From: Escherichia coli
GTDB lineage: Bacteria; Pseudomonadota; Gammaproteobacteria; Enterobacterales; Enterobacteriaceae
Assembly (NCBI RefSeq): GCF_030013205.1
Contig: NZ_CP122648.1
Reading direction: 5' to 3' (one strand)
Length of the DNA: 64,000 nucleotides
In this document: piece after piece, positions 57,892 to 60,248 of the stretch
Position numbering within the stretch: position 1 is the first letter of the stretch
Layout of the letters: each line of letters begins with the position of its first letter
Position numbers and translations under genes: made by a program
The notes under the pieces: model-generated
Databases searched by the model: none
What the model was told of the DNA's origin: nothing
What the model saw: the letters and a program-made list of their open reading frames with translations, nothing else

Positions 57892-58962
57892 ATGGCAGGA
57901 CTGAAATTACAGGCAGTAACCAAAAGCTGGGATGGCAAAACCCAGGTCATTAAACCGCTGACCCTTGATGTGGCGGATGGCGAATTTATCGTGATGGTCG
58001 GGCCGTCTGGCTGCGGGAAATCGACGTTATTGCGAATGGTGGCCGGACTGGAGCGGGTAACGACGGGCGATATCTGGATCGACCGCAAGCGTGTCACCGA
58101 AATGGAGCCGAAAGATCGCGGGATTGCGATGGTGTTCCAGAACTACGCGCTCTATCCGCATATGAGCGTAGAGGAGAACATGGCGTGGGGGCTGAAAATT
58201 CGCGGCATGGGCAAGCAACAAATTGCCGAACGTGTTAAAGAAGCGGCGCGCATTCTGGAGCTGGACGGCCTGCTTAAGCGCCGCCCGCGTGAGCTATCTG
58301 GCGGTCAGCGTCAGCGTGTGGCGATGGGGCGTGCGATTGTGCGTGAGCCGGCAGTGTTCCTGTTTGATGAGCCGCTCTCTAACCTCGATGCCAAGTTGCG
58401 CGTACAGATGCGTCTTGAACTGCAACAGCTGCACCGTCGCCTGAAAACGACTTCACTCTACGTTACTCACGATCAGGTTGAGGCGATGACGCTCGCCCAG
58501 CGAGTAATGGTGATGAACGGCGGCGTTGCCGAACAGATTGGCACGCCAGTTGAAGTCTACGAAAAGCCCGCCAGCCTGTTTGTGGCGAGTTTTATTGGCA
58601 GTCCGGCGATGAATCTGCTGACAGGCCGCGTGAATAATGAAGGCACGCATTTTGAACTGGACGGCGGTATCGTGCTACCGCTAAACGGTGGCTACCGTCA
58701 GTATGCCGGGCGTAAAATGACTCTCGGCATTCGCCCGGAACATATTGCGCTAAGCTCGCAGGCAGAAGGCGGCGTACCGCTGGTGATGGACACGCTGGAG
58801 ATCCTCGGCGCAGATAACCTGGCGCACGGACGCTGGGGCGAACAGAAGCTGGTGGTGCGACTGGCGCATCAGGAGCGCCCGACGGCAGGCAGCACGCTGT
58901 GGCTGCATCTGCCGGAAAATCAGCTGCATCTTTTTGATGGTGAAACAGGACAACGAGTATGA
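57892..58962 (+). CDS. ugpC: glycerol-3-phosphate ABC ATPase
   Basis: 356-codon frame [11 protein letters not shown]... with Walker [10 protein letters not shown]. Confidence 0.93.
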
Positions 58963-59702
58963 GTAACTGGCCTTATCCCCGCATCGTCGCTCATCGTGGC
59001 GGCGGTAAGCTGGCCCCGGAGAACACCCTGGCAGCAATCGACGTCGGGGCAAAATACGGTCATAAGATGATCGAATTTGACGCGAAGTTATCGAAAGATG
59101 GCGAGATCTTCCTGCTCCATGACGACAATCTTGAACGCACCAGCAACGGCTGGGGCGTCGCGGGCGATCTGAACTGGCAGGATTTACTGCGCGTGGATGC
59201 AGGCAGTTGGTACAGCAAAGCGTTTAAAGGTGAGCCGCTACCGTTGCTTTCGCAGGTGGCGGAACGCTGTCGCGAACACGGGATGATGGCGAATATCGAA
59301 ATCAAACCCACCACTGGCACCGGGCCATTAACGGGCAAAATGGTGGCGCTGGCGGCACGCGAACTGTGGGCCGGAATGACGCCGCCGCTGCTGTCATCGT
59401 TTGAGATTGATGCTTTAGAAGCCGCGCAACAAGCAGTACCAGAACTGCCGCGCGGTTTATTGCTTGATGAGTGGCGCGACGACTGGCGAGAACTGACCGC
59501 GCGGCTGGGCTGCGTCTCTATTCATCTCAATCATAAGTTGCTCGATAAAGCGCGAGTGATGCAGTTGAAAGACGCCGGATTACGGATTCTGGTTTATACC
59601 GTCAATAAACCCCAGCGCGCGGCAGAGTTGCTGCGCTGGGGCGTGGATTGCATCTGTACCGATGCGATTGATGTGATTGGTCCGAACTTTACGGCCCAAT
59701 AG
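58959..59702 (+). CDS. ugpQ: glycerophosphodiester phosphodiesterase
   Basis: 247-aa ORF matching UgpQ as recalled. Confidence 0.93.
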
Positions 59703-60129
59703 TTTTCAACGGTATATCAGGCTGCGGCGTGCCGGGCTGATTCAGCATGTCGCCGTTTCTCCTCTCCGGCAACATATGCTGCTGATTCAACGAACTATCC
59801 GGATTACGGTTGCTGTTTAACATCCCGCCATTGGTGTTGGGCAGCATTTGCTGCCGGGCGGGATTTCGCTCCCCCGGCTGTGACTGCAACACCCGCTGAG
59901 AATTATTGTTTATCTGGTTTTCTAAATGCTGTTGTTGCAGCTGCGTTTGCGTTTTCAGTTGCTGATTCAGCATCCCTTTTTGCTGGATTTGCTGCGTTTG
60001 CATTTGGGTTTGCATCCGCTGCTGGCTGGGGATCTGATATCCCGGCTGGTTGGGGTTGTTCAGAGTATTAATGGGCTGTGCAAAGCCGACAAACGGCAGG
60101 AGTGCCGTAAGAATCAGAAGTCGTTTCAT
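59689..60129 (-). CDS. yhhA: Q-rich secreted protein (DUF2756)
   Basis: 146-aa ORF with signal peptide and Gln/Asn-rich low-complexity repeats; 3' end overlaps ugpQ by 14 nt. Confidence 0.85.
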
Positions 60130-60248
60130 CGCGTATCCTCCTCTGAAGATATCCTTTAAGTTTACTCGCTTCCCGGCAAAACGATGATTAATTCAGAGTT
60201 ATATACCAGGCTTAGCTGGGGTTGCCCCTTAATCTCTGGAGAATAACG

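Follow-up and report, generated by a model that had tools for sequence, protein, structure and literature searches.

YhhA of Escherichia coli, a conserved Gln/Asn-rich protein with a signal peptide, a predicted helical core and a repeat-bearing tail

The window analysed here is a 64,000-nucleotide stretch of an Escherichia coli genome (assembly GCF_030013205.1, contig NZ_CP122648.1). A minus-strand open reading frame of 146 amino acids is identical to E. coli yhhA (Table 1). The frame matched the Pfam family DUF2756 (PF10956) over profile positions 1-105 of 105 (E = 1e-60, 202.9 bits against a cut-off of 21) and the NCBIfam equivalog model NF007675 (PRK10350) over positions 1-145 of 145 (E = 2e-79, 264.6 bits against a cut-off of 136). 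Of the 5426 complete E. coli genomes, 5424 carry the gene in their RefSeq annotation, a K-12-type O16:H48 strain among them. The PF10956 match and the RefSeq annotation confirm the name YhhA, which an earlier, sequence-only reading of this DNA had given to the frame. In the window, yhhA lies between ugpQ, which is convergent with it, and ggt, which is divergent, and the same ugpQ-yhhA-ggt placement was found in K-12-type E. coli, Salmonella, Buttiauxella and Enterobacter. This is the position expected of an orthologue, with the end of the ugp operon on one side and the ggt/yhhW region on the other.

Table 1. Features of the yhhA locus, with positions counted along the whole 64,000-nucleotide window
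Feature	Position	Strand	Basis or description
yhhA CDS, DUF2756 family	59689..60129	-	146 codons + TAA, ATG start; ORF list
Convergent overlap of the yhhA and ugpQ CDS ends, 14 nt	59689..59702	.	ORF coordinates; same in K-12
P/N/G-rich tail, aa 85-146	59692..59877	-	Predicted disordered; conserved C-terminal end (IPLKTIGP)
Tail repeat unit 2, aa 116-131	59737..59784	-	Motif scan
Tail repeat unit 1, aa 93-106	59812..59853	-	Motif scan; DNA direct repeats D1/D3/D7, 72-nt spacing
Gln-rich core, aa 34-84, ending in QPG	59878..60030	-	39% Q, 49% Q+N; Pro-free
Conserved Asn/Pro motif of the mature N-terminus, aa 18-33	60031..60078	-	Mean column conservation 0.85
Signal peptide, aa 1-17	60079..60129	-	Predicted SPase I site between A17 and Q18; read from sequence
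Divergent ggt-yhhA control region, 119 bp	60130..60248	.	ggt ATG at 60249
Shine-Dalgarno GAGGAGG	60137..60143	-	7 nt 5' of ATG; read from sequence
Candidate -10 GTAAACTTAA (TAAACT + TAA)	60156..60165	-	Sigma-S-like; putative assignment

Compared with the K-12 allele, 13 of the 14 differences in yhhA are synonymous, which gives a dN/dS of 0.019, while the value for ugpQ is 0.067. Together with the matches to the family models, this ratio rejects an alternative frame or a non-coding artefact; the frame is real, and the different reading frame named earlier as the danger to the Gln/Asn-rich reading was not found. Two plus-strand open reading frames of 63 and 77 amino acids were rejected as mirror images of the CAG/CAA-rich yhhA frame. 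The Rfam search at E ≤ 1 returned only an 18.6-bit chance match within ugpQ, PADLOC detected no defence family, and the best PHROGs hit of YhhA had an E-value of merely 0.049. In E. coli, yhhA is part of the core genome and genuinely encodes a protein; its family, DUF2756, is small and restricted to the Enterobacterales. It is an already known and annotated gene, and the observation of its composition restates a property of the annotated protein.

Judged by the source names of its homologues, the family occurs in Enterobacteriaceae and Erwinia, including genera such as Buttiauxella, Kosakonia, Phytobacter and Yokenella. Short-form homologues lack the tail and keep merely the signal, the motif NPSQQRMQxQM, the Q-rich helix and the motif QRVLxSQPG. 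The Pfam comparison showed no similarity of YhhA to a family besides DUF2756. Likewise, hmmsearch of two family profiles against the PDB gave nothing meaningful, with no sequence match even at E ≤ 10, and Foldseek of the YhhA model against the PDB found no fold relative. The phage-borne homologue P0168 showed weak matches to Rz-like spanins (E = 4e-4), which we attribute to its composition of a signal followed by a polar helix.

The only constant neighbour of yhhA is ugpQ, which faces it in the opposite orientation and does not share its transcript; the convergent order is retained in 11 of 12 contexts. The yhhA/ugpQ pair has been catalogued as an excludon (PMC12288877), and no intrinsic terminator was found within 390 nt 3' of yhhA. 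Together with the 14-nt overlap of the two coding sequences, these features would agree with a locus at which the protein is incidental and an antisense transcript running into ugpQ couples the RpoS and Pho/ugp programmes. We consider this very improbable, as YhhA is abundant in proteomes and the overlap is missing in several relatives, in which the two genes are separated by gaps of 33-114 nt. Moreover, the dN/dS of 0.019 and the conserved residues indicate that selection acts on the YhhA protein itself. An antisense effect could be additional to the role of the protein rather than an alternative to it.

Upstream of yhhA, a spacer of about 120 bp is retained in Salmonella, Buttiauxella, Enterobacter and Enterobacteriaceae bacterium 89. 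The purine-rich GAGG/AGGA core of the Shine-Dalgarno sequence is retained at the orthologous loci, and five genera of Enterobacteriaceae share an unchanged TAAACTTA some 30 nt 5' of the ATG. A scan of the region upstream of yhhA for consensus sigma-70 promoters gave none. A SELEX peak of the RpoS holoenzyme has been reported within the ggt/yhhA spacer (PMC5493296), and yhhA is on a list of RpoS-regulon genes induced upon cold shift. Its induction has also been described on entry into the stationary phase and by several stresses, where the gene sits in a hub together with rpoS, and a LolCDE inhibitor raised its expression 5.6- to 9.9-fold, alongside osmY, katE and elaB. The published regulon lists and the SELEX result indicate that yhhA is expressed as part of the general stress response under RpoS.

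The N-terminus of YhhA has the organisation of a classical Sec signal, with an n-region MKR (K/R), a 13-residue hydrophobic core and then G-F-A before Q-P (G at -3, A at -1). It contains neither a twin-Arg motif nor a lipobox Cys; both these features and the predicted cleavage site were read from the sequence. The residues A17, Q18 and P19 are invariant in 33 orthologues, and distant short-form homologues retain an AxA-type cleavage site. YhhA was among the top 15 proteins of a surface extract of STEC, beside periplasmic proteins (PMC9731836), and proteomes of Salmonella and of ESBL E. coli contained it as well, which makes three proteomic studies in all. The secretion by a signal peptide proposed from the sequence is borne out by the conserved Sec and SPase I features and by the presence of the protein in envelope or surface extracts (PMC9731836), and these features suggest that YhhA is cleaved after A17 and resides in the periplasm.

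A different destination is implied by a preprint (bioRxiv 10.1101/364117) in which YhhA is called an experimentally validated effector of EPEC and conserved S/TQ and QS/T motifs are presented. [quoted passage not shown] The cleavable Sec signal is kept family-wide, the core gene occurs in 5424 of 5426 E. coli genomes as well as in Buttiauxella, Kosakonia, Phytobacter and Yokenella, and yhhA is regulated by RpoS in the manner of housekeeping stress genes, all of which makes this role hardly credible. An effector would be expected to depend on the T3SS for its secretion or translocation, to be confined to strains that have a T3SS and to keep its N-terminal secretion signal uncleaved; the status of a T3SS effector is not supported in view of the Sec signal, the core-gene distribution and the occurrence in non-pathogenic genera.

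The mature protein (aa 18-146, 129 residues) consists of 22.5% Q, 14.0% N, 10.9% P and 6.2% T. Gln and Asn together account for 36.4% (47/129), against a background of about 8.3% in E. coli (binomial P = 6e-19 relative to this background). Among the 84 open reading frames of at least 100 amino acids in the window, YhhA ranks first in Q+N content, with 32% against 17% for the runner-up. Sequence entropy falls to 2.4-2.9 bits per 20-residue window at aa 31-70, compared with 3.1-3.35 bits elsewhere. The mature chain is devoid of Cys, Phe and Trp and has one Tyr as its sole aromatic residue; it contains two His and seven Met (Met enrichment P = 0.07), 6.2% Gly and 12% charged residues, and the precursor has a GRAVY index of -1.05, the mature form one of -1.40. 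The description of YhhA in the sequence-only reading as strongly Gln/Asn-rich, of low complexity and unusual for E. coli agrees with the 47 Q+N of 129 residues, the entropy dip and the first rank among 84 frames, and both peptides quoted there are present, at aa 40-50 and aa 57-67.

Three modules can be distinguished behind the signal peptide. In the Asn/Pro motif, N21, N24, N25, P26 and N27 are invariant among the orthologues, and the AlphaFold2 model shows no regular structure at aa 18-33. AlphaFold2, with a pTM of 0.24 for its model, drew the Gln-rich core as a single long helix that spans aa 34-83 (pLDDT 70-85); the invariant positions of this core are P34, Q37, R38, M43, Q46, Q47, G52, M53, L54, Q56, Q61 and Q65-67. 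The tail consists of 16% P, 14.5% N and 9.7% G, with pLDDT below 50 at aa 87-142. It carries two copies of the pattern QQ(H)MLPxxxNGxML, and the number of repeats differs between species; an E. albertii allele, in which aa 93-116 are deleted, is without unit 1. In unit 2, H118, M119 and L120 are invariant or almost so, and M128-L129 is nearly invariant. The ML dipeptide occurs five times in YhhA against 0.65 expected (P about 1e-4).

Across 33 orthologues from many genera, 25 columns of the alignment are invariant and 35 nearly invariant. The identity between genera reaches 76-85% for aa 18-84 and 58-69% for the tail, compared with 81-87% for UgpQ. The sequence of YhhA is, as judged from the orthologue alignment, under position-specific purifying selection that goes beyond compositional selection alone.

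In the charge-hydropathy analysis the mature protein falls within the disordered range (<H> 0.345, boundary 0.424), and the same was obtained for every segment. An intrinsically disordered domain had been proposed from the composition, and this proposal holds in part. It is supported by the low pLDDT for the tail, aa 85-146, only, and by charge-hydropathy for the whole mature chain; however, the quoted Q-rich stretches lie in the most conserved part, which has many invariant Gln and is predicted to form one long helix. According to the model, the Q-rich segment probably adopts the form of a long polar helix, though perhaps under certain conditions only. In a GS-linked fusion of three copies of aa 31-86, used as a crude surrogate of a multimer, AlphaFold2 gave a mean pLDDT of 36 and a pTM of 0.26. 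The pLDDT of the helix fell below 50 in this construct, so that even the helix is uncertain. Coiled-coil formation was judged by a hydrophobic periodicity of 3.5-3.75 residues along the helix, and in the 3.3-3.9 band the family-averaged hydropathy of aa 34-84 showed no amphipathic or heptad periodicity beyond that of shuffled sequences (P = 0.33). A coiled coil or self-bundle was rejected on the missing periodicity and on the linked-trimer model (pLDDT 36), the latter being negative though not decisive.

The composition alone also recalls prion-like proteins, and YhhA could be imagined as a Q/N-rich protein that forms amyloid or condensates by self-assembly in the periplasm. Michelitsch and Weissman, in their census of Q/N-rich proteins from 2000, reportedly used a criterion of at least 30 Q/N per 80 residues; the best 80-residue window of YhhA (aa 21-100) contains 36, and 11 of the 12 other DUF2756 members checked contain 30-39. 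Self-assembly of this kind is nevertheless quite unlikely. Outside aa 35-84 the chain is interrupted by a proline every 5-13 residues, the single Tyr leaves the protein nearly free of aromatics, the Q-rich core is predicted to be helical and has no heptad or amphipathic periodicity, and prion domains do not usually show such strict conservation by position. The linked-trimer values give no support for self-association, and a survey of bacterial prion-like proteins does not include YhhA in its supplementary lists.

The Met residues bring in another reading, that of a periplasmic sponge for Cu, Ag or Zn or of a sink for methionine oxidation, similar to SilE/PcoE or ZraP. M43, M53 and M119 are invariant in the 33 orthologues, M39, M103, M128 and H118 are nearly so, and M39 and M43 form an i,i+4 pair. 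The distant members P0197 and P0198 match the Metal_resist (ZraP family) model at about 20 bits, below its cut-off of 29.2; CpxP itself scores similarly on this model. On the other hand, when the family profile was compared with ZraP and with Spy by hhalign, the probabilities stayed below 1% (0.3% and 0.2%; the ZraP and Spy sequences used were confirmed by their own Pfam matches), and no PDB sequence matched at E ≤ 10. Two His, seven mature Met (P = 0.07), no Cys and no MxxH/HxxM arrays likewise make such a function improbable, and the literature found contained no report of metal regulation of yhhA. Kinship with ZraP or Spy was rejected, as E. coli YhhA had no match at E ≤ 1, the hhalign probability was below 1% and there was no PDB match.

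The explanation that we tentatively prefer, with a rough probability of 0.45, is that YhhA is a non-enzymatic, hydrophilin- or LEA-like stress protein of the periplasm, linked to RpoS and working by binding; the role is deduced from the features described above. YhhA would be exported by Sec, cleaved after A17 and accumulated under the RpoS response as a soluble periplasmic or envelope-associated protein. The mature chain, devoid of catalytic features, comprises the Asn/Pro motif, a proline-free segment of 50 residues with 39% Gln and the tail. The middle module, conserved like a folded enzyme, would form a long polar helix, perhaps conditionally, while the faster evolving and presumably disordered tail would contribute a variable number of QQ(H)MLPxxxNGxML units and the conserved C-terminal IPLKTIGP. 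By direct binding, with the helix and the short motifs as contacts, YhhA may protect or organise a conserved component of the envelope.

The GRAVY of -1.40, the Gly content of 6.2% and the charge-hydropathy position on the disordered side point to a hydrophilin-like protein. Hydrophilins are reportedly defined, following Garay-Arroyo et al. in 2000, by more than 6% Gly, a hydrophilicity index above 1 and induction by water deficit, and YhhA lies within these composition thresholds (Gly 6.2%, marginal; GRAVY -1.05 and -1.40). The Gly value is barely above the threshold, and the helix is not amphipathic (P = 0.33). No LEA, KGG or other hydrophilin family of Pfam matched YhhA, and no functional experiment or knockout phenotype for yhhA was found in the literature searched.

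The conservation bears on a rival possibility, less probable in our view, in which YhhA is a disordered adaptor or regulator that docks on one conserved periplasmic partner and modulates it in the stationary phase. The position-specific conservation of Gln, Met and Arg exceeds what a non-specific protectant needs and is more in keeping with a specific partner. The 25 invariant and 35 nearly invariant columns, the Q-rich core conserved as much as UgpQ, the conserved C-terminus, the dN/dS of 0.019 and the enrichment of ML-containing motifs (P about 1e-4) all agree with docking. NNPNxPGY, R38/M43, KGML, HML and the C-terminal IPLKTIGP could be the docking motifs, and the partner might be sought among proteases, peptidoglycan enzymes or outer-membrane proteins, for example. 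However, the gene neighbourhood suggests no partner, with cytoplasmic UgpQ as the only constant neighbour, the number of tail repeats varies between species and the short forms lack the tail.

A more specific mechanism, which we regard as doubtful, is that the conserved 39%-Gln segment is disordered when dilute and, under the water loss, acid or crowding of the stationary phase, turns into a long polar helix and enters a reversible assembly held by hydrogen bonds of Gln side chains, which gels or coats the periplasm and envelope proteins, with the ML-repeat tail tuning this process. If true, this would be the first conditional Q/N assembly described for the bacterial periplasm, and YhhA would do in that compartment what LEA/CAHS-type or prion-like protectants do elsewhere.

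yhhA is a core, strongly conserved, stress-induced and abundantly expressed gene of E. coli. The mechanism of a protein that is one-third Gln and Asn would extend the small set of envelope stress protectants, in a compartment that is free of ATP and exposed to drying, acid and osmotic change, and YhhA would allow conserved, non-amyloid roles of Q/N-rich sequences in bacteria to be tested. The present analysis adds the modular anatomy, a conserved and probably helical Q-core with a repeat-bearing tail predicted to be disordered, and the strength of purifying selection, and it rejects the readings of YhhA as an effector, a coiled coil or a ZraP-like protein.

Among known systems, YhhA resembles the hydrophilins and LEA proteins in being small, non-enzymatic, induced by stress or RpoS and predicted to be disordered, with a long helix of low confidence; it differs in being exported and in owing its hydrophilicity to Gln and Asn, with few charges (12%). 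With the prion-like domains of yeast Sup35/Ure2 and of Clostridium botulinum Rho it shares the Q/N content (36/80), low complexity and few charges, but it differs in its periplasmic location, proline-rich flanks, near absence of aromatics and positionally conserved Q-part with its predicted helix. CpxP, Spy and ZraP (LTXXQ, Metal_resist) are also small, Sec-exported, stress-induced, helical and Gln-containing, whereas YhhA has no LTXXQ motifs and is predicted as a helix with a tail, not as a helical hairpin dimer. Asr and SilE/PcoE are disordered periplasmic stress proteins of enterobacteria, Asr being rich in Lys, Ala and His and SilE/PcoE carrying His/Met motifs; YhhA resembles them in size, signal peptide, predicted disorder and stress induction, and its composition differs. 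The curli subunit CsgA is, like YhhA, Sec-exported, RpoS-dependent, Q/N-rich and enterobacterial, but YhhA gave no match to Curlin repeats, is without Gly/Ala/aromatic beta-strand repeats and is predicted to be helical or disordered. Within DUF2756/PRK10350, YhhA is the type member, matches over its full length without difference and occupies the same locus as the annotated yhhA of E. coli, Salmonella, Enterobacter, Buttiauxella and others.

The yhhA reading frame matches the Pfam family DUF2756 over its whole length (E=1e-60) and the NCBIfam equivalog PRK10350 (E=2e-79). Its DNA was found in 5424 of 5426 complete E. coli genomes, chromosomal in every case, and the annotation at this locus is yhhA flanked by ugpQ and ggt. 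The comparison with the K-12-type allele revealed 14 nucleotide differences, of which 13 were synonymous (dN 0.0029, dS 0.153, dN/dS 0.019), and yhhA is more tightly constrained than its overlapping neighbour ugpQ (dN/dS 0.067). The Q/N-rich frame proposed in the sequence-only reading is therefore under selection and real; both peptides quoted there were found in the translation, and the composition had been described correctly. Mass spectrometry has identified YhhA in Salmonella (PMC4265081), in an ESBL E. coli (PMC9927464) and in a STEC surface/envelope extract, where it ranked within the top 15 proteins by abundance (PMC9731836).

For the yhhA and ugpQ alleles of the window (58959-60129), dS relative to the K-12-type alleles is ~0.15-0.16. 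At yhhA, just 272 of the 5424 genomes share 99% or higher identity with the window, which places the window, for this locus, in a minority lineage of E. coli. Two Leu/Ala/Phe-rich open reading frames lie antisense to yhhA; they were rejected as genes, as they mirror the CAG/CAA-rich frame and the pattern of synonymous substitutions does not support them.

Features at the yhhA locus and in related loci (window positions unless a locus or aa, precursor numbering, is given)
Feature	Position	Strand	Description
yhhA ORF	59689-60129	-	ATG to TAA, 146 codons
Ribosome-binding site GAGGAGG	7 nt upstream of yhhA ATG	-	
ugpQ	58959-59702		coding region convergent with yhhA
yhhA/ugpQ overlap	59689-59702		convergent coding overlap, 14 nt
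Second conserved upstream block	60166-60215	- (as viewed)	
Antisense ORFs	59880-60159	+	63 and 77 aa
Region of length events	59773-60036		aa 32-119
YhhA module 1	aa 18-33		Asn/Pro motif, mean conservation 0.85
YhhA module 2	aa 34-84		proline-free, 39% Gln
YhhA module 3	aa 85-146		P/N/G-rich tail, pLDDT <50
P0168 gene (phage/viral loci)	L011 4001-4264; L017 6001-6261; L018 3435-3695		short-form DUF2756 homologue, 87 aa
Erwinia psidii insertion	L009 2680-3750		between ggt and DUF2756 gene

Residues 1-17 show the tripartite (n, h, c) layout of a Sec signal peptide with Gly at -3 and Ala at -1, contain neither a twin-arginine motif nor a lipobox cysteine, and leave a predicted mature protein of 129 aa (Q18-P146). 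The conserved Sec signal conflicts with the proposal that YhhA is a T3SS effector or ATM mimic (bioRxiv 10.1101/364117), a minor alternative that is also at odds with the occurrence of yhhA in strains of K-12 type and in genera that are not pathogenic. A ppApp photoaffinity probe captured just six E. coli proteins, and YhhA was among them (bioRxiv 10.1101/2021.12.15.472736); given the predicted periplasmic location, this was probably non-physiological binding in the lysate.

The mature chain consists of 22.5% Gln, 14.0% Asn, 10.9% Pro and 6.2% Thr, with no Cys, Phe or Trp and with 12% charged residues in all. With roughly 8.3% Q+N taken as the E. coli background, the 47 Q or N among the 129 mature residues give a binomial P of 6e-19. 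The six reading frames of the window hold 84 ORFs of 100 aa or longer, and YhhA ranks first among them in Q+N fraction (32%; runner-up 17%).

Thirty-three orthologues drawn from different genera were aligned; 25 columns are invariant and 35 nearly so. This alignment and the AlphaFold2 model divide YhhA into three modules. Within module 2, P34, Q37, R38, M43, Q46, Q47, G52-M53-L54, Q56, Q61 and Q65-67 are invariant, and AlphaFold2 with this alignment as input predicted one helix at aa 34-83 (pLDDT 70-85; whole model, mean pLDDT 60 and pTM 0.24). In module 3, QQ(H)MLPxxxNGxML occurs twice and the C-terminal end is conserved; five ML dipeptides were counted where 0.65 would be expected (P about 1e-4). 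When E. coli is compared with four other genera, identity over aa 18-84 is 76-85%, similar to the UgpQ enzyme (81-87%), whereas the tail reaches only 58-69%, so the part that looks most low-complexity is the most constrained. Such tight positional conservation would suit a specific adaptor whose motifs dock on one partner, the main rival to the role proposed below; no partner is indicated, and we consider an adaptor rather unlikely.

No amphipathic periodicity was detected in the helix, the best power in the 3.3-3.9-residue band being no better than in shuffles (P=0.33), and a three-copy GS-linked fusion of aa 31-86 folded with a mean pLDDT of 36 and pTM of 0.26. The helix is therefore a marginal prediction, and neither result supports a coiled coil or self-bundle. 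The charge-hydropathy calculation placed every segment on the disordered side. We tentatively read YhhA as disordered or conditionally helical rather than globular; the disorder suggested earlier fits the tail but oversimplifies the Gln-rich core, given the conservation of that core and its predicted helix. A prion-like assembly, to which the density of 36 Q/N per 80 aa might point, is a minor alternative opposed by the proline-rich flanks, the helix prediction and the lack of self-packing.

In the collection searched, in-frame duplications or deletions were found in 33 alleles (96 to 163 aa, most of them from E. coli) whose identity to the window protein is 90% or higher. All events, of 3-50 codons each, are confined to one region and sit at short DNA direct repeats. 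Such variants are rare, as exactly 441 nt were kept in 59 of 60 complete genomes sampled evenly along the ranking. The E. albertii protein has a 24-aa deletion with the loss of one tail repeat, and a Kosakonia protein has one additional tail repeat.

The search of 5.8 billion proteins gave 467 clusters, the named ones belonging to Escherichia, Salmonella, Citrobacter, Enterobacter, Yokenella, Phytobacter, Buttiauxella, Kosakonia and Dryocola. The family is tiny: when 1.84 billion representatives were searched exhaustively with a profile, only 80 matched at E<=1e-3. The weakest real matches are short forms of 87-112 aa, e.g., in Erwinia psidii, which keep the signal peptide, the NPSQQRMQxQM motif, the Gln-rich stretch and QRVLxSQPG and are without the C-terminal tail. 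No second Pfam family common to the members was found. Sub-threshold Metal_resist matches in two distant members would fit a Met/His metal sponge, an oxidation sink or a ZraP relative, a minor alternative refuted by hhalign probabilities below 1%. The phage/prophage gene of the short form P0168 is placed like a moron, flanked by the large-terminase and protease-capsid genes and read from the other strand; the protein occurs in two IMG/VR viral contigs and weakly matches PHROG Rz-like spanins (E=4e-4).

The convergent DUF2756/GDPD arrangement was present in 11 of 12 contexts examined, distant short forms included, the sole exception being a short homologue within a phage terminase/head region. 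The upstream neighbour differs, being ggt, pirin or, in Erwinia psidii, an insertion. The latter comprises a type III effector gene (AvrPphF-ORF-2 family) and a CesT-type chaperone, which shows that the upstream side is a variable insertion point and that the side towards ugpQ is fixed. Because UgpQ is cytoplasmic, the constant synteny is taken as inherited and as no evidence for shared function. No intrinsic terminator was found within 390 nt downstream of yhhA, so transcription of yhhA is expected to continue into ugpQ as antisense RNA. The pair has been named as an excludon (PMC12288877), and an RpoF-holoenzyme SELEX peak lies inside ugpQ (PMC5493296). The minor alternative that the locus acts solely via antisense is refuted by selection on the YhhA protein.

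The ggt-yhhA spacer of 119 bp contains, ~30 nt before the yhhA ATG, a TAAACTTA element that is invariant in five genera and resembles the sigma-S -10 consensus, making it a candidate -10. Upstream of it lies a second block, TAAGCCTGGT...CT..AA.AATCATCGT, common to five Enterobacteriaceae genera, which may represent a regulator site or else the promoter of the divergent ggt gene. In genomic SELEX, the RpoS holoenzyme binds the spacer (PMC5493296). Published lists place the gene among the cold-shift-induced members of the RpoS regulon (PMC4057180) and also give it at stationary-phase entry (PMC2241611), after rapid acid treatment (PMC2270276) and in response to several stresses, where it shares a network hub with rpoS (PMC9501238). 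LolCDE inhibition raised yhhA 5.6- to 9.9-fold, together with osmY, katE and elaB (PMC5105897).

yhhA is an already annotated gene without an assigned function, and nothing about it here is categorically new. The sequence contains no catalytic motif or cysteine, neither sequence nor fold gave structural relatives in the PDB, and no defence-system match was found, so that a physical or binding role remains. Our best reading, with a probability of about 0.45, is that YhhA is an exported, hydrophilin-like stress protein. It would be produced under RpoS control and, by binding an envelope component directly, would protect or organise that component. With a GRAVY of -1.40 and 6.2% Gly, mature YhhA lies within the published thresholds for hydrophilins.
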